Program-made: the position numbers and the translations under genes
Notes under the pieces: model-generated
Seen by the model: the letters and a program-made list of their open reading frames with translations, nothing else
What the model was told of the DNA's origin: nothing
Databases searched by the model: none
Source of the DNA: Mizuhopecten yessoensis
Lineage: Eukaryota
Direction: 5' to 3'
DNA length: 64,000 bases
Assembly: GCF_002113885.1 (NCBI RefSeq)
Contig: NW_018408891.1
Span: forward strand, 621,633 to 685,632
Part shown: positions 25,460-58,320 of the stretch, in pieces
Layout: each line of letters opens with the position of its first letter
How positions within the stretch are numbered: position 1 is the stretch's first letter

Positions 25460-25660
25460 ATTAAGGGTTGAAAGCACTTCCCCTTTTGTTAATACATTTT
25501 CAGTGGTTTAGATAAAATCTATTTGAACTTTCCAATTGTTTGACCCCAAGCACCACCGATGATAATTAGAAGGATGAAAAAGCAGTGTAATTCATGTTCG
25601 TACATTGTATCCGATTTTAAAGGTGTGATTGCCTCTCTGTGTGCTACGTTCATCATTCTA
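25460..25660 (+). mobile_element. Degenerate copy (locus C) of the hammerhead-containing repeat family
   Basis: GCACCA-CCGATGA(25556-25562)...GAAGGATGAAA..GCAGTGTAA. Flanks ATTAAGGG..GCACTTCCCC..CAGTGGTTTAGA and TTAAAGGTGTGATTG..GTGTGCTACGTTCATCA resemble loci A and B. Stems II and III are destroyed. Confidence 0.6.
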
Positions 25661-42484: not shown

Positions 42485-45438
42485 ACATAGTATACTAGAA
42501 TAATCACTAGGAATGCAAAGTAAGTATGTGTGTTCATGTCTTGTTTCAATCCTGGAAAATATTTAACAAAAAAAGTAAGGAAAGACCTTTTTGCATTCAG
42601 GCGAAGTTCAATTTGTTTATTGCACCTATACGTCCATTAGGTATACCAAGGACTCGCCAGTAGCACTAAGGGAGACGGAACACTAATCCATGTAAAACGT
42701 GTTCCACATACTGGTAGAAACATTATACAATACATTACACATTTCAAACTGTGCCGAGCTAAAGTCCTCTGAGAGTTTGGTGACAAAGTACTTTTCCTGT
42801 TTTTCCTCTCTAAGAAACATTTGTTATTACAAAAAATGTATTATTATTAGATAACACCGCTCTTATTTGAAATCTTCCATTACAGTGTTTTATTTGTTTG
42901 TTTGAGGCAAAGCGCCTTCGCTAACATTCTTTGCCACATGATAACGCTATTTGGTTTTAGTTAAGCAATTTAAGTGACCATACCGCCTCCACTTCCATGC
43001 CGTTGTTTGGCGTTTTTGGAAGATAAGAAAATAAAAGTTTGTTGAATCCCATCTACTATTTTCAGAACAATGCCTGGTCATACAACATAAAACCAAGGTT
43101 CAATCAGTCATGGGATACACTATAGAACGAGGGGCTAGCCATTAAAGCGATACGCCTTGGAAAGAAGGGCCAGGCGGTCACACATAAAGGATACGGAATA
43201 GCAACGCAGTGGAGATAATAACGGGACACACAATGGAATCACATGTCCGCTGTTTACCGGATATACCACGGAGACAAGATCCATCTCTCACGGGAGTAGG
43301 AAAAGGCGGTCATGGGGATACTACGGAAACACAACAAGAGAAAGAGATGGAAAGTTCAAATCACCAATACAACAAAATTACACTTGATTTCGTTGTTGCA
43401 CCTTTTTGCGTTTGTTAATTTGATACTCTGTAGTTTGCTTCCAATAACACAATGATTAGCTGTGAAACAATCAATCAAGCGATCGAGATTGTTGGAGAGC
43501 CGTTGCAGTGGGCTGTGTGCTGTGTGCTTGGTGCTGGGGTTGATGACTCAGTTTTCAGAATGTGAATTTTATTGATATTTAGCGGTATGTTCTAAATTGT
43601 AATGCCAAAGCGATTCCTGGAGTATGTATGTAAGACCAGACAGTTCATACCGGAAAGAAATAATAAAAATGAATAAAAAAGAAAAGTTTTTCTATGAATA
43701 ATAAAATATAATATAAACACACTAAAAAGCGAGCAGCGTTTGACCGAACAGGTTTTTTTCCGGGAAGCTATTCAAGGTAGACTTAAGTTAATTTTGGATT
43801 ATGAGTAGTTCCTGATGTATTTCACAGAAACTGGCAGAAATCACTATGGCGTGAGTCTAAACTATATTTTCCTCTGATTATCATTGAAAATATTGATAGA
43901 TCAATATATAAATGTATCTTCTGGTTTTATACTCTAGATATATTCATTAATTTCCTCCAGTTAACTGACCTAGCATGGTACATGTAGCAGAGTAGGAATA
44001 AAGAACTCTTAAGTGTTTAATACCTGCAACATATATTATTATGTGATAAGTTTTTGTTTTGATACTGCTGTAAATATATTTGACGGTTTATTCTGTTTAT
44101 TGATGTAGACGTTGACTTATCTTGGTGTTTTCTGCAATATCATTAAGAATGCGTAGTAAATCATCAATGTGACATGAATTATATAATACTTGTGTCTTCC
44201 CCAATGTACACAATTCCTTACATGTATGTTGTTCTGCACCACGAGAAGAACTATTAATCAATACAATTACGTAAGATATCCAAACTAAAGGCGAACTCAA
44301 TTCAGAAAAATATATACACGGATGTTCGTTGAACTGACGATGACTAGTTCAAATCACGATCTGTTACAGACCGGCAGACAATATTGAAATAAAGACGTCG
44401 CTATCATCTCATGTCTGGGTCTAACATGGTCTTATGTAACGGACAATGTGATTACACGACATTCAAATGACTAAAACACATACATATGTGTATGTACAAT
44501 CAGACTCGAGGCATACCCTTCTATCGTAACAAATGTCAAAACAATTACAGTTACTCACTTTGATGTTTATACGAGAAGCATTCCAAGCTAAATTCGATAC
44601 AGAGTCGATTCCTGCTGTTTTAAATATAGACTCAGGAGACTGCGTCTTTAATAGAAATTCGTTTGATAAATGGGTTCTCTACGATCACGAATTAAATGTG
44701 CATGATAACGCCTACGTAAGATATTGATGTATACAGTTTACAACAAAACAAAACCATTTAACAATCAGTAAAACATGTATGCGTTATACAAAGATGTGTG
44801 TTTTGCTATTTAGTTCCATAAATATATACTGACTATTCATTGAATTCGGGCAAAAGCATTTATTTTTAACTTTTGTGCGAATCCCAGAAGCTCAGAGGTA
44901 GGAAGAACTAAAAGTGAAGGCGCTAAAACGCAACAACAGAAATCTAGAAAACATCCTTCATTTCATATACTTTCACTTCCACTTTTTGTAAGCGTCCAGG
45001 ATATCTTTTTAGGAAATTCTCCTCAAATTCTTCTTGTTTTTCTCTATATCGACTAAATGTTGCGTGCAAACATTGCGATACAAATCGTTTGTGTCACTTC
45101 AAGTCATTCTAGAAAGGCTTAGCAGCTGTATGATGCAGTGTAGTTCCTTGTTGGCATGCCATTACCAAGTGTTAAAGGTGCAGTCGACTGTATGTGTGTA
45201 ACGTTCATCAACTAAGATACAAGGTAGACTCAACTGGTGAAGTTTAAGTCCTCCAGGTTTACATTTCCCCTGATTAACATAGTTTTAATGGAGGCACGGT
45301 TCATACTACAACCCCTTGACATTTTTGTTTTATTTGAAATTATCCATTACTCCTTCAAATTTTGAAATTCATAATTGAAGGGATTTTACGCACCTACCCC
45401 TCTGTATCAACAGTGATTAAGATGGTTTTGCTACTACT

Positions 45439-46044
45439 ATTCTATTATGGTCCTTTCCTGAGGGAACTGTTCTCTTATAGTGTTGTCTGGAGAGGTATAA
45501 TGCCCTCGCCTAACGGCTCGGGTACTATACCTCTCCTGACAAACACTATAAGACAACTGTTCCCGAGGGAGAGGGTCATAATTGATTTAGTACATCACAT
45601 GACTGTCATTTGGTAATAGAAAGTAACATATTTAATAGTTAACAACAAATGCCAATAAGATAATTGTTTGAGAAGATCTCTCTTTTTTTGTTGTAGGAAG
45701 TAGGAAGACTTTAAGGACTGCGATGTGAAATGGTGTCGTCTACTTCGTCTTAATGTATTGCTGAGCCTCTGCGAAGCAATCGGCATTCCTGGTCCCGAAA
45801 TTCGAAGCCATTTTGGCAGACGACAACAATGAAGTGAAAGTAGAATATATACAGTGCCCCCTAGGAGAAGGGTCGTAGAGTCACGATATTTTTCACGCAG
45901 TCTCAGCTGTCCAAAAAAAAGGTATAGTGCCCGTCTCCAGGTATAGTTCCCGTTGTCAAGGGCGGATGCTAACTATACCAAACAGAACAAGGGTAGTTAT
46001 CCAATAGCTATCCTAGAAATTATCATGTGATGTAATAAATTCTA
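45439..46044. mobile_element. 600-bp hairpin-headed non-autonomous DNA element with 6-bp flanking direct repeat ATTCTA
   Basis: 139-bp hairpin at 45444-45582. Inverted pair ATTTAGTACATCACATGA (45585-45602) / TCATGTGATGTAATAAAT (46023-46040). ATTCTA at 45439-45444 and 46039-46044. Confidence 0.75.
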
Positions 46045-46088
46045 GCATCACCGATGAGTCCCAGAAGGACGAAACGCCTGTTTGATGT
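46045..46088 (+). ncRNA. Minimal type I hammerhead ribozyme (core CCGAUGA)
   Basis: GCATCA-CCGATGA-GTCC-CAGAA-GGAC-GAAA-C-GCCT-GTT-TGATGT: stem I, perfect 4-bp stem II, GAAA, short stem III, GUU triplet (predicted cleavage after 46082). Confidence 0.82.
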
Positions 46089-46475
46089 AGTGTATTTATT
46101 TCTTTGCATACTGTTAAACCTGTGTGTGTTACGTTCATTAATACCATTTGTAGCAAACAGCCGCACAATATTTATGGTACCATAACCAAGTTTGAACAGT
46201 CGATATAGAGTGCAATAGATGCAGGTGCCTCTTTAATCGGCGGATGAGAAGAGTATGTTATGCTAGACTCTAAGCCACACGACAGAGCTTAGTGTAAACG
46301 TAGTTCTTTGGTAGAACACTGCTCTATCTATTCCTTCCATAAGCAGAAATACAGTCTAAAACGCAATGTCAAATATCAACAAAATCAATGTATACAAAGT
46401 TTATGTATTTACAACAATTATGAAACGATGCGTTCAAACTTAAAATTAATAACTCGTGTTGGTCTGAATAAACAC

Positions 46476-51300: not shown

Positions 51301-53199
51301 CAGTACTAAATTACATGTGAATATCGGTGTGTACAAAACTGTTCATAATACAAATTATGTTTACACATTTTTCATAGAAGCATGAAACGGTCAGCATGCA
51401 TTTGCATGTAACCACGTGCATTAAAACCTATCGTGAACTATAAAACTATGTTGAATGATTCTGTTTAATCATATCTTTATACCTCCATAATTAAAGAGCT
51501 ACATATTACATATACATAATGAACAAATAGTGAGTTAGAAGATAGATACGTGCATACAACAAATAAATGTGACAAAATAACAGTAGTAGGATTTATTCGT
51601 GGACAACAGATGTGATGGCATATAAAGTTAATCGAGAAAAAGAGGAGTAACAAAAAAGAAAGGAAAAAAATCAAAAACGTGCTACATTACAAAACACTAT
51701 AGCATTTTTTACAGCGTGATAATATTATATGGTCACCATGATTTTACATGTAAACACAGGCGTTCAATCCTCTGAAACTATGTTCTATTATTCTGTTCAC
51801 CGTTCAATTTTGACAGAAAACGAAAAAGAAACAATCACATATTGCAGGAAATACTTTTCTCAATCAGGAAATGCATGAATACATGTAATTTGCTCTCTCA
51901 GAACATCATAAAATAAACATGAAAGCTTATGTCTTCTGAGGTTCCCTGTCCTACTGCAGGCGTAACTCTAGATATTGTCGTACCTACTGTATGCTTTGCT
52001 ATATTCTGTATTCCGTTGAGCAACTGACTCAGCTGGTTAGACCGACACTTTAAATCTTGTGGATTTATTCATCTTTTTTATTTGTTCAAGAAATCCCCAA
52101 CAAGGCATGTCTTCTTCTTTTCATAAATGATCCACCAAAGCTTCAGTCATGCAAGTGAGATCATGAGATCATTTTCTAATACATAGCTGCAGTTATAAGC
52201 AGTGGTATTGGGATACTGACCAGCCAGGTCATGTGGATATATGATCTTGTATTGTTTGTGCTATGCATTAAAAAACAGACTCTGTCAAAACTCAGTGGCA
52301 GTGTAATAGTTATGATTTAAAACCAATTTCCGTTTTGAAGAAAAAATACTATTGAGACTTATCATTGGGGTGTTTTGTCGGAAACCTAGCAGATTTCGTT
52401 TCCCATCTCGAACATTTCCGCTGGCGTTTTATTTCCTCTTCATGTTTGCACTTAAGTAGCCATATTTGGTAATGAACGTGACAATTGAATGTGATATATG
52501 ATATTGATTGATGTAATATATTTCTGGCCCATACTCGGTTATTTGATAGATTTGTTCGCTTAAAGAGTAGTAGTTTTATACTTTAGAAAATTAAAACAAT
52601 TACTCTTATGTCAAAATTAGCTCTTTTCTTTTTCTTCCTTGTCTTTCAATATTTGCTATTGTGAAACCAGAAAGTTTGCATTGTTTGCAAGTATACAAAT
52701 ATAAAAAATAGGTAATAATTTTCCGAGTAAGCTAACTATGATTGTGAGAGCTGCATCTAAGCCAGACATTGGGAAGGTCAATTCAATTGTCCACACACTG
52801 AGGAACCCCTAGGAACCGCCTCAGTCGTAACCTTGTCATGACCACTGGTCTGTCAAATCAATCCTAATTAAGGCAAAATGTCATATACAATGTCTCATTA
52901 CCGGCGAATAGTATTAGAATCCTGACCGCAGAATGACGAATACTATAATAAACCAAGGCACTCAAACAAGTGTTAAATCGATATGAGATTTTCCGGGAAA
53001 ACATCCGCCCATCTATTTCAGGCAAACCGTATATGAGGGAAAAGTTGATAAGAACGATTAATTAATCTTATTTCCAAGTGTGTTGATGATGTGATATATA
53101 TTTGTCCACTTGTATTGCCGATGAGGAATACTTTTGTTATTAAGTTTATTGACGCTGTGGTAGATATTGTTTTTTCCGTGTTGATGCTGTAGTTTATTT

Positions 53200-56100
53200 G
53201 GTCCAGACCTGTTGATGATGTTGGATATGTTGTCATTATGTGTTGACATTGTGGTATATTATGTCCTTGTGTGTTGATACTGTGGTATATTGTGTCCTTG
53301 TGTGTTGACAATGTGGTATATTATGTCCTTGTGTGTTGACACTGTGGTATATTCTGTCCTTGTGTGTTGACACTGTGGTATATTCTGCCCTTGTGTGTTG
53401 ACACTGTGGTATATCATGTCATTGTGTGTTGAAACTGTGGTATATATTGTCACTGTGCGTTGGCACTGTGGTATATCATGTAATTATGTGTTGACACTGT
53501 GGTATATTCTGTCCTTGTGTGTTGACAATGTGGTATATTATGTCCTTGTGTTTTGACACTTTGGTATATCATGTCATTTTGTGTTGGCACTGTGGTATAT
53601 CATGTAATTATGTGTTGACACTGTGGTATATTCTGTCCTTGTGTGTTGACACTGTGGTATATTATGTCCTTGTGTGTTGACACTTTGGTATATCATGTCA
53701 TTTTGTGTTGGCACTGTGGTATATCCTGTCATTGTGTGTTGCCATTGTGGTATATTCTGTCCATCTGTGTTGACACTGTGGTATATATTGTCACTGTGCG
53801 TTGACACTGTGGTATATCATGTCATTGTGTGTTGACACTGTGGTATATTCTGTCCTTGTGTGTTGACAATGTGGTATATCATGTCATTGTGTGTTGGCAC
53901 TGTGGTATATCATGTCCTTGTGTGTTATATTCTGTCCTTGTGTGTTGACACTGTGGTATATTATGTCATTTTGTGTTGGCACTGTGGTATATCCTGTCAT
54001 TGTGTGTTGACATTGTGGTATATTCTGTCCTTGTGTGTTAACACAATGGTATATATTGTCACTGTGCGTTGACACTGTGGTATATCATGTCATTGTGTGT
54101 TGGCACTGTGGAATAATCTGTCCTTGTGTGTAGTCAGTGTGGTATATATTGTGACTGTGCGTTGACAATTTGATATATTATGTCCTGGTGTGTTGCCACT
54201 GTGGTATATCATGTCATTTTGTGTTGGCACCGTGGTATATCAAGTCATTGTGTGTTGACACTGTGGTATAATTTGTCCTTGTGTGTTGACACTGTGGTAT
54301 ATCATGTCATTGTGTGTTGGCACTGTGGTATAATCTGTCCTTGTGTGTAGTCAGTGTGGTATATATTGTCACTGTGCGTTGACAATTTGATATATTATGT
54401 CCTTGTGTGTTGACACTGTGGTATATCATGTCATTTTGTGTTGGCACTGTGGTATATCAAGTCATTGTGTGTTGACACTGTGGTTAATCTGTCCTGTAGT
54501 GTTGACACTGTGGTATATCATGTCCTTGTGTGTTAACACTGTGGTGTATCATGTCCTTGTGTGTTAACACTGTGGTATAATCTGTCCTAGTGTGTTGACA
54601 CTGTGGTGTATCATGTCCTTGTGTGTTAACACTGTGGTATATCATGTCCTTGTGTGTTGACACTGTGGTATATCATGTCCTAGTACGTTGACAATGTGGT
54701 ATATCATGTCCTTGTGTGTTGACACTGTGTTATATCATGTCCTTGTGTGTTAACACTGTGGTGTATCATGTCCTTGTGTGTTAACACTGTGGTATATCAG
54801 GTCCTTGTGTGTTGACACTGTGATATATTCTGTCCTTGTGTGTTGACACAGAGGTATATCATGTCCTTGTGTGATGACACTGTGATATATTCTGTCCTTC
54901 TGTGTTGACACTGTGTTATATTCTTTCCTTATGTGTTGACAGTGTGGTATATTATGTCCTTGTGTGTTGACACTGTGGCATATCATGTCCTTGTGTGTTG
55001 ACACTGTGGTATATTCTGTCCTTCTGTGTTAACACTGTGGTATATATTGTCACTGTGCGTTGACACTGTGGTATATCATGTCATTGTGTGTTGACACTGT
55101 GGTATATTCTGTCCTTGTGTGTTGCCACTGTGGTATATCATGTCATTTTGTGTTGGCACTGTGGTATATCAAGTCAATGTGTGTTGATACTGTGGTATAT
55201 TCTGTCCTTATGTGTTAAAACTGTGGTATATCATGTCATTGTGTGTTGGCACTGTGGTATATCAAGTCGTTGTGTGTTGACACTGTGGTATAATCTGTCC
55301 TTGTGTGTTGACACTGTGGTATATCATGTCATTGTGTGTTGGCACTGTGGTATATCAAGTCGTTGTGTGTTGACACTGTGGTATATATTGTCACTGTGCG
55401 TTGACACTGTGGTATATCATGTCCCTGTGTGTTGACACGGTGGTATATTCTGTCCTTGTGTGTTGACAATGTGGTATATCATGTCATTGTGTGTTGGCAC
55501 TGTGGTATAATCTGTCCTTGTGTGTTGACACTGTGGTATATATTGTCACTGTGCGTTGACAATTTGGTATATTATGTCCTTGTGTGTTGACACTGTGGTA
55601 TATCATGTCATTTTGTGTTGGCACTGTGGTATATCAAGTCATTGTGTGTTGACACTGTGGTATAATATGTCCTTGTGTGTTGACACTGTGGTATATCATG
55701 TCATTTTGTGTTGGCACTGTGGTATATCAAGTCATTGTGTGTTGACACTGTGGTATAATATGTCCTTGTGTGTTGACACTGTGGTATATCATGTCATTTT
55801 GTGTTGGCACTGTGGTATATCAAGTCATTGTGTGTTGACACTGTGGTATAATTTGTCCTTGTGTGTTGACACTGTGGTATATCATGTCATTGTGTGTTGA
55901 CACTGTGGTATATCAAGTCGTTGTGTGTTGGCACTGTGGTATATCCTGTCATTGTGTGTTGTCATTGTGGTATATTCTGTCGTTTTGTATTAACACTGTG
56001 GTATATACTGTCACTGTGCGTTGACACTGTGGTATATCATGTCATTGTGTGTTGACACCGTGGTATATCATGTCCTTGTGTGTTAACACTGTGGTATATC

Positions 56101-58320
56101 ATGTCCTTGTGTGTTGACACTGTGGTATATTCTGTCCTTGTGTGTTGACACTGTGGTATAATCTGTCCTTGTGTGTTGACACTGTGGTATATCATGTCAT
56201 TGTATGTTGACACTGTGGTATAATCCGTCCTTGTGTGTTGACACTGTGCTATATCATGTCATTGTGTGTTAGCACTGTGGTATATCAAGTCATTGTGTGT
56301 TGACACTGTGGTTAATCTGTCCTGTAGTGTTGACATTGTGGTATATCATGTCCTTGTGTGTAAACACTGTGGTGTATCATGTCCTTGTGTGTTAACACTG
56401 TGGTATAATCTGTCCTAGTGTGTTGACACTGTGGTATATCATGTCCTTGTACGTTGGCACTGTGGTATATCATGTCCTTGTGCGTTGACACTGTGGTATA
56501 ACATGTCCTTGTGTTTTGACACTGTGGTATTTTCTGTCCTTGTGTGTTGACGATGTGGTATAACTTGTCCTTGTGTGTTGACACTGTGGTATATTTTGTC
56601 CTTGTGTGATGACACTGTGATATATTTATCCTTGTGTGTTGACACTGTGGTATATTCTTTCCTTATGTGTTGACACTGTGGTATATTATGTCCTTGTGTG
56701 TTGACACTGTGCATATCATATCCTTGTGTATTGACACTGTGGTATATCATGTCCTTGTGTGTTCACACTGTGGTATATCATGTCCTTGTGTGTTGACACT
56801 GTAGTATATCATGTCCTTGTGTGTTGACACTGTGGTATTTCATGTCCTTGTACGTTGACACTGTGGTATATCATGTCCTTGTGCGTTGACACTGTGGTAT
56901 ATAAAATCCTTGTGTGTTGACACTGTGGTATATAGTGTCCTTGTGTGTTGACACTGTGGTATATTTTGTCCTTGTGTGTTGACGCTGTTGTTTATTTTGT
57001 CCTTGTGTGTTGACACTTTGATATATCATGTCCTTGTGTGTTAACACTGTTGTATATTATGACTTTGTTTGTTGACACTGTGGTATTTTCTGTCCTTGTA
57101 CGTTGACACTGTGGTATATTCTTTCCTTATGTGTTGACTCTGTGGTATATTTTTCCTTGTGTGTTGCCACTGTGGTATATCATGTCATCGTGTGTTGACA
57201 CTGTGGTATAGCATGTCCTTGTGTGTTGACAATGTGTTATATCATGCCCTTGTGTGTTGACACTGTCATTGTGTGTTGACACTGTGGTATATTATGTCTT
57301 TGTTTGTTGACACTGTGGTATTTTCTGTCCTTGTACGTTGACACTGTGGTAAATTATGTCCTTGTGTGTTGACACTGTGGTATATCATGTCATTGTGTGT
57401 TGGCACTGTGGTATAATCTGTCCTTGTGTGTTGACACTGTGGTAAATTATGTCCTTGTGTGTTGACACTGTGGTATGTTCTGTCCTTGTGTGTTGACACT
57501 GTGGTATAATTTGTCCTTGTGTGCTGACACTGTGGTATATTCTGTCCTTGTGTGTTGACACTTTGATATATCATGTCCTTGTGTGCTGACACTGTGGTAT
57601 ATTCTGCCCTTGTGCGTTGACACTGTGGTATATTCTGTCCTTGTGTGTTGACACTGTGGTATGTTCTGTCCTTGTGTGTTGACACTGTGGTATAGTATGG
57701 CCTTGTGTGTTGACACTGTGGTATATTCTGTCCTTGTGAGTTGACACTGTGGTATATCATGTCCTTGTGAGTTGACACTTTGGTATATTCTGTCCTTGTG
57801 TGTTGACCCTGTGGTATATTCTGTCCTTGTGTGTTGACACTGTGGAATAGTATTGCCTTGTGTGTTGACACTGTGGTATATTCTGTCCTTGTGCGTTGAC
57901 ACTGTGGTATATTCTGTCCTTGTGTGTTGACACTGTGGTATATCATGTCCTTGTACGTTGACACTGTGGTATATCATGTCCTGCTACGTTGACACTGTGG
58001 TATATCATGTCCTTGTGTGTTGACACTGTGGTATATCATGTCCTTGTGTGTTGACACTGTGGTATATNNNNNNNNNNNNNNNNNNNTGTCCTTGTGTGTT
58101 GACACTGTGGTATATTCTGTCCTTGTGTGTTGACACTGTGGTATAGTATTGCCTTGTGTGTTGACACTGTGGTATATTCTGTCCTTGTGAGTTGACACTG
58201 TGGTATATCATGTCCTTGTGAGTTGACACTTTGGTATATTCTGTCCTTGTGTGTTGACACTGTGGTATATTCTGTCCTTGTGTTTTGACACTCTGGTATA
58301 GTATGGCCTTGTGTGTTGAA
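53200..58320. repeat. 31-bp satellite array, ~5.1 kb (~165 copies), spanning an N gap
   Basis: Unit TGTGTGTTGACACTGTGGTATATCATGTCCT with variants. A 31-aa (93-nt) periodicity appears in the spurious ORFs. Confidence 0.98.
58068..58086. other. Assembly gap (19 N) inside the satellite
   Basis: Run of N. Confidence 0.99.

Follow-up and report, generated by a model that had tools for sequence, protein, structure and literature searches.

A C4 hammerhead core as the source state of family A, an extinct retrozyme-type repeat in Mizuhopecten yessoensis

The hammerhead at 46045-46088 of the window (the whole 64,000-nucleotide stretch analysed here, contig NW_018408891.1 of Mizuhopecten yessoensis, positions 621,633 to 685,632) belongs to a dispersed repeat, family A, whose source elements carried C instead of U at core position 4. 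Family A is an extinct retrozyme-type element that has decayed neutrally, and it was likely copied by a Penelope-like reverse transcriptase. We favour, with moderate confidence, the whole explanation in which a C4 source ribozyme cut slowly and only as a dimer in the RNA of this ~373-bp element.

Family A in the window and in the genome

The three-stem junction of the motif at 46045-46088 is open at stem I, as in type I hammerheads. Its match to Rfam Hammerhead_1 (RF00163) scored 26.2 bits (E 0.042), under the gathering score of 34. The pattern GCATCACCNANGAGTC, allowing at most one mismatch, was found twice in the window against 0 matches in 100 shuffles, and a profile from 30 genomic copies located five family A segments there. 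The main features are as follows.

46045..46088, plus strand: type I hammerhead of a family A copy (Rfam match, folding, alignment to copies)
46045-46050 and 46083-46088, plus strand: stem I, GCATCA / TGATGT (6 bp)
46051-46057, plus strand: core CCGATGA, with C4 at 46052
46058-46070, plus strand: stem II (4 bp), then GAA at 46071-46073
46074-46081, plus strand: stem III, 2 bp, reading ACGCCTGT, palindrome lost
46082, plus strand: U17, GUU triplet; predicted cut between 46082 and 46083
45109-46138, plus strand: interrupted family A insertion holding this ribozyme, broken by a 600-bp insert
45109..45430, plus strand: 5' part of that insertion, a partial upstream unit and then unit positions +1 to ~+310
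45109, plus strand: start of the insertion, inside the preceding ribozyme; CAGCTGTA TGATGC at 45123-45136
45445..46044, no strand assigned: later 600-bp insert directly 5' of stem I, with ATTCTA at both 45439-45444 and 46039-46044
46089..46138, plus strand: what a partial deletion has left of this copy's 3' tail, which stops at about unit position +85
34835..35294, minus strand: second family A copy, ~1.1 units, with a hammerhead at 34940-34897
34940-34897, minus strand: that hammerhead, core CCAAAGA at 34934-34928 (G5A and U7A), stem III ACAACTGT
25460..25658, plus strand: third and most decayed family A copy, core CCGATGA at 25556-25562, stem II broken

The initial annotation had read three cores with C at position 4, CCGATGA at 46051-46057 and 25556-25562 (both plus strand) and CCAAAGA at 34934-34928 (minus strand), and all three are present as described. 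Two of its three stem III regions, C-GCCT-GT (46075-46081) and C-AACT-GT (34910-34904), lie in their own copies; the third, C-AGCT-GT, is absent from the 25556 copy, where ~10 bases are missing over stem III, cut site and stem I, and is found at 45123-45129, in the upstream partial unit of the insertion that holds the 46045 ribozyme. The proposed convergence of these regions on the palindrome ACAGCTGT is borne out by its exact presence in 81/207 family copies, the next commonest 8-mer occurring in 6, and this palindrome is the consensus stem III of family A. The copy at 46045-46088 is very likely a dead ribozyme, judging from its sequence, because it has lost the palindrome, carries a GUU triplet and is interrupted by the 600-bp insertion. 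That insert contains a 145-bp hairpin (45441-45585) and 18-bp inverted arms (45585-45602 / 46023-46040), and it had no match among the other fetched loci.

Several unrelated features were observed elsewhere in the window. A near-perfect long hairpin at 30993-31084 (weak microRNA-family matches far under cut-off) is probably a small inverted-repeat element, and 36809-36928 holds a short GIY-YIG-like fragment resembling a Penelope endonuclease (tblastn E 5e-6). A tandem repeat of 45 bp at 2425-2625 includes CAACGAAACGTCCGTATAAT, and the strong strand skew at 52000-58000 (AT skew down to -0.44, GC skew up to +0.28) suggests a simple or tandem repeat tract.

Alignment of loci with an upstream partial copy gave family A a period of 373 bp. 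The unit is non-coding and AT-rich (38% GC) with one type I hammerhead each, within the ~150-400 bp size range of retrozymes, and flanking frames contained no coding region tied to it. The hammerhead stems measure 6/4/2 bp, and loop 3 is palindromic. Pattern counts give a rough and probably low estimate of ~1,900 copies spanning the motif, and family size may be put at roughly 2,000 or more. Copies are dispersed, most of them single, 5'-truncated or partial-tandem, and several loci have two cores; no long full-unit tandem array occurred among the loci fetched from this fragmented assembly. The 5' ends are variable. The 3' ends fall at +71 to +100 from the cut site in 113/201 segments, against 16 expected if uniform, and in a second, independent sample 59/68 stop near +90 and 9/68 continue into the next unit, one further match being too short for a call. 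Divergence from the consensus ranges from 8% to 29% with a median of 15% (205 segments of at least 120 bases), and catalytic bases have been lost at the same pace as neighbouring bases, which indicates no visible selection on the copies that exist today. For the circular consensus the folding energy was -86.4 versus -76.7 ± 5.3 in 40 shuffles, a weak difference, and single-strand folding z-scores of five short copies (-1.2 to +1.8) were not significant. One exact family A pattern gave 0 matches in metagenome contigs.

Ribozyme-only arrays were seen as well. Locus L321:540-970 (G000:C76728, near 361200-361550) comprises a head-to-tail series of about six 59-bp units, each consisting solely of the family A ribozyme, with the U4 core CTGAGGA; by its sequence, this minisatellite could form double hammerheads. 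Loci L285 and L286 (G000:C5220) are arrays of ~60-bp family A units with A at position 4.

C as the source state at position 4

C was the majority letter at position 4 in every family A sample that we tallied. With the core left free, the 100 matches listed of 140 had C73/T19/A4/G4 at position 4 and G84/A11/C5 at position 5 (hand tallies). The pattern proposed in the initial annotation for a genome-wide tally returned C4 in 81 of the 100 matches listed (117 in all, also by hand). That annotation had staked its reading on CTGA not prevailing among genomic copies, and matched patterns counted across the whole genome gave 135 CCGA versus 46 CTGA, of which the CTGA count takes in five copies from a single local tandem array and about five matches to the sister family; reversed-pattern controls gave 0 matches. 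Among 79 copies not selected by core, in a set partly drawn with a query carrying C4, position 4 was C in 60, T in 11, A in 5, G in 1 and a gap in 2. A core-blind sample, selected by sequence 3' of the cut site, contained 37 C, 6 T and 3 A (n=46). The frequency of A in one set (19/155) was inflated by the local tandem arrays L285 and L286.

The minority T matches CpG decay. C4>T (11/77) was comparable to G5>A (10/77) in the 79-copy set, and other CpG sites showed C>T in 51/250 and G>A in 34/250. The proposal that CCAA is the CpG-deamination product of CCGA thus agrees with a G5>A change that mirrors C4>T, and CTGA is likewise CpG decay. T4 and C4 copies (34 versus 107) are equally divergent (16.5% versus 17.4%), and no site was linked to T4 (379 tests, smallest p 0.007). 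We also considered CTGACGA as a distinct U4 subfamily and rejected it, as the enrichment of C7 (8/34 T4 versus 8/107 C4, p 0.025) fails across the 379 tests. Because CTGA occurs at the CpG-decay rate and without a linked marker, C4 is the source state of family A and not decay, as the initial annotation held. That C4 arose by decay of a U4 source, or that the three copies in the window show C4 through chance sampling, is refuted by the tallies, since the T found in about 14-25% of family A copies fits CpG decay mirrored by G5>A, T4 copies form no clade-like group and C predominates in each sample. Two-state sites that are linked to one another (279/283, 209/283 and 210/283, although alignment within a C run may account for some of the link at 279/283) suggest at least two source lineages, and both lineages at site 279 are mostly C4 (31C/4T and 26C/6T). 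The family A consensus has perfect stems and every core base other than C4 canonical, so its source state departs from CUGANGA / GAAA / UH solely at position 4.

A sister family with U4 and a different palindrome

A sister family, family B, came to light when the genome was searched for the canonical core and with Rfam; one copy of it scored 35.5 bits against the Rfam gathering score of 34. Its consensus aligns to that of family A across ~180 bases, and a downstream hairpin is common to both. In the 23 loci with a core among 30 loci fetched (with one family B copy as query, itself T4), position 4 was T in 21, A in 2 and C in 0, which differs from the core-blind sample of family A (37/46 C; Fisher p 2e-11). 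Hammerheads in general have U at core position 4, and family B keeps it; U4C is thus derived at the family level. Stem I reads GCATCA/TGATGC in family A versus GTACCA/TGGTGC in family B, with two-sided changes that keep the pairing. The 8-base stem III palindrome is likewise ACAGCTGT in family A versus ATGGCCAT in family B, the letters differing and the palindrome being kept. This difference suggests that the palindrome, and so the pairing of two ribozymes, was selected in the source elements, and the swap between the families is the best evidence here in support of a selected double-hammerhead pairing.

Family B also has ribozyme-only arrays, at loci L503 and L516 (G000:C5024 and C5369; ~73-bp units, 6 and 7 cores). 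Loci L167, L171, L177, L320 and L180 carry additional hammerhead repeats with U4 that are akin to family B, some of which are possibly separate families; L180 has two U4 hammerheads ~395 bp apart.

Predicted folding and a proposed mechanism

Folding predictions favour the dimer. The double hammerhead of family A was predicted at -31.5 versus a dimer minimum free energy of -33.3 (monomer -7.8), and that of family B at -33.9, equal to the dimer minimum (monomer -6.6), using consensus motifs and a real copy, L043, equal to the family A consensus, with tertiary contacts ignored. For the window copy, whose palindrome is lost, the double hammerhead (-15.4 versus a minimum of -20.6) is not favoured. 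For a consensus transcript of 1.3 units, folding predicts that the palindromes pair with each other (probability 0.9-1.0) and that the 3' strand of stem I is held in a hairpin at +2 to +34, which could form only after ~30 more bases are transcribed; the active fold lies ~7 kcal/mol over the minimum and the monomer fold 13. Three brakes on cleavage are therefore predicted by the model: the short stem III, the blocking hairpin and U4C. The initial annotation had cited, as established, that minimal hammerheads with a very short palindromic stem III cleave as dimers in tandem transcripts. The sister palindrome and the folding support the dimer reading, but the motif is of the 6/4/2-bp retrozyme type and not the helix-III-less minimal type, and copies are mostly single and dispersed.

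We propose that a single unit would have only a 2-bp stem III, with the downstream hairpin taking stem I away after ~30 bases, while in longer-than-unit transcripts two ACAGCUGU palindromes would pair into an 8-bp stem III and produce the active fold. U4C would lower cleavage without abolishing it, and longer-than-unit RNA would cut itself slowly and solely as a double hammerhead. A Penelope-like enzyme would then copy family A RNA into the genome, with reverse transcription starting at a preferred site that lies ~90 bases past the cut site on its 3' side; copying through the uncut or re-ligated site would leave 5'-truncated and partial-tandem copies.

Cleavage traces and RNA

In the genomic copies we saw no sign of cleavage. 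Only 3/76 matches start exactly at +1 and 5 within 2 bases, and the rest extend upstream through the cut site; the core is missing no more often in copies that continue into the next unit (2/9 versus 12/59, p=1). A 5'-end pile-up at the upstream ribozyme (19/49 segments) was considered as a cleavage fossil and rejected, as it was not reproduced in an unbiased sample; the list behind it had left out starts upstream of unit position 330. Raw RNA reads on family A are sparse (129-705 per ~11-13 million records). They represent both strands and continue into unrelated sequence, as would be expected of old copies within host transcripts. Neither starts nor ends of reads accumulated at the cut site, and there were no joints, in standard libraries that lose small circles and for a family that is old. 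Among indexed sequencing runs, no RNA run was listed with family A.

The absence of cleavage traces, and of a partner element among the loci checked, together with a mutational scan of another hammerhead in which all single mutants of the CUGA turn had low activity (available part of PMC9901934), makes a dead source ribozyme a real rival. U4C may in effect have killed the ribozyme, and family A may have spread on uncut read-through transcripts with the motif intact since amplification came soon after. Accordingly, ~70/76 matches cross the cut site and the ends do not pile up there, and Naiad-type Penelope elements are described as spreading without canonical hammerheads in the available part of PMC8557442. 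However, no fewer than two source lineages have retained C4, and the family A consensus is free of other damage to core or stems. A viroid with U4C is viable, the same change turns up repeatedly in phage motifs whose stems are intact, and read-through is equally expected from re-ligated circles. We consider the dead source ribozyme unlikely, though it deserves serious weight.

A possible Penelope-like partner

Family A has features of a Penelope derivative, namely 5' truncation, a fixed 3' end and partial tandems. No autonomous element sharing its 3' end was found in 29 copies of one Neptune-type family and 15 further loci. A Neptune-type endonuclease frame at locus L078 (Pfam GIY-YIG) was examined as a co-mobilised partner and rejected, because it is inserted into a family A copy, with unit positions 192-239 on one side of the frame and 243 onward on the other. 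A young Penelope family occupies loci L182-L210, with many near-identical copies, long open frames and ends at TA repeats, and its linker motif is one that we take to mark Neptune-type elements. The name was given by comparing domain order and linker motif with the available part of PMC8557442. About 35-75 bases from their 3' end, these elements carry a hammerhead that has the canonical core CTGAAGA and a palindromic stem III of its own.

Family A may alternatively be a shrunken Penelope-like element with pLTR ends and its frame gone, in which partial tandems came from linear RNA and the hammerhead was inherited from the pLTR, and not a circle-forming retrozyme. Penelope-like elements with 5' truncation, a fixed 3' end just past the ribozyme and partial tandems have been described (available part of PMC8557442), the young Neptune-type element of this genome ends about 35-75 bases beyond its own hammerhead, and the RNA reads contained no evidence of circular RNA. 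Against this, no coding remnant or parent was found in the flanking frames and loci checked, the unit size and the 6/4/2-bp ribozyme fit retrozymes and not minimal PLE hammerheads, and 9/68 copies start upstream of one ribozyme and continue into the next unit, several loci having two cores. The two readings overlap, because retrozymes have been proposed to derive from pLTRs (preprint 10.64898/2026.07.22.740005, as available), which also takes weight from the alternative. A shrunken element that never formed circles seems decidedly improbable.

Relation to known systems

Seen from its sequence, family A would behave as metazoan retrozymes do, its hammerhead being of the dimer type and departing from the strict core at one position. 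Metazoan non-LTR retrozymes, in the available parts of Cervera and de la Pena 2020 (PMC7229834) and the preprint of Li et al. (10.64898/2026.07.22.740005), share with it the non-coding unit, one type I hammerhead, 6/4/2-bp stems, a palindromic loop 3 and co-existence with Penelope-like elements; mussel retrozyme repeats measure 350-390 bp (PMC7229834). In contrast to those retrozymes, family A has a C4 source core and mostly single or partial-tandem copies in place of arrays, and it is old (the nearest copy is 8% from the consensus), with no abundant RNA among the raw reads. The stem I-blocking hairpin predicted in family A is reported among animal retrozymes solely for some mussel circles in the available part of PMC7229834. 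The pLTR hammerheads of endonuclease-bearing Penelope-like elements (PMC4209133 and PMC8557442, available parts) resemble it in that a type I motif with a palindromic helix III lies close to the 3' end and is predicted to act as a dimer, and in that copies are 5'-truncated and form partial tandems. Unlike these elements, family A has no reading frame and no parent among the loci searched, its helix II of 4 bp and helix I of 6 bp are not of the minimal-hammerhead shape, and it carries C4, whereas the core change reported for the pLTR hammerheads is U3-A8. A short palindromic helix III works as a dimer, according to the available parts of PMC4209133 and PMC7229834.

U4C itself has precedents. 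In vitro its activity is considerably lower, and viroid infectivity is still allowed (PMC3088659, available part); the peach latent mosaic viroid hammerhead (Ambros and Flores 1998, cited in PMC3088659) has the same U4C as family A. In phage and viral contigs, the CCGA pattern matched 21 stretches versus more than 129 for CTGA, and several CCGA stretches have intact stems I and III by eye. U4C is thus a rare variant in viroid and phage hammerheads and the majority state in family A, and as a documented natural variant it places the family A hammerhead among type I variants. Among the literature searched, with few subscription papers or supplements within reach, we found no C4 retrozyme or Penelope family, and the available part of PMC3907566 contains nothing on U4C. 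The expectation that strict-motif searches would miss this core holds for CUGANGA-strict searches, but a published CYGANGA descriptor exists (PMC13481778, available part). When 74 candidates from the genome were scored with Rfam, 3 matched, and each of these was a U4 copy.

The surprise of a C4 family is limited, because U4C is precedented and family A is extinct. What hammerheads contribute to Penelope-type elements and retrozymes is treated as an open question in the available part of PMC8557442, and family A reached thousands of copies while its core carried a change that is known to make cleavage slower, beside a homologous standard-core family. CUGANGA-strict surveys undercount elements of this kind. 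The C4/U4 pair with its swapped palindrome provides ready constructs for dimer dependence and for the cost of U4C. A bolder reading, which we regard as quite unlikely, makes U4C a tuned brake that, with the dimer-only stem III and the blocking hairpin, left mostly uncut templates for the Penelope-type enzyme to read through and helped the C4 family outgrow its U4 sister; first-look candidates numbered 3392 for family A versus 338 for family B, from different queries and not as copy numbers. If the brake were indeed tuned, the two families would be a natural experiment in whether cleavage helps or hinders retrozyme spread.
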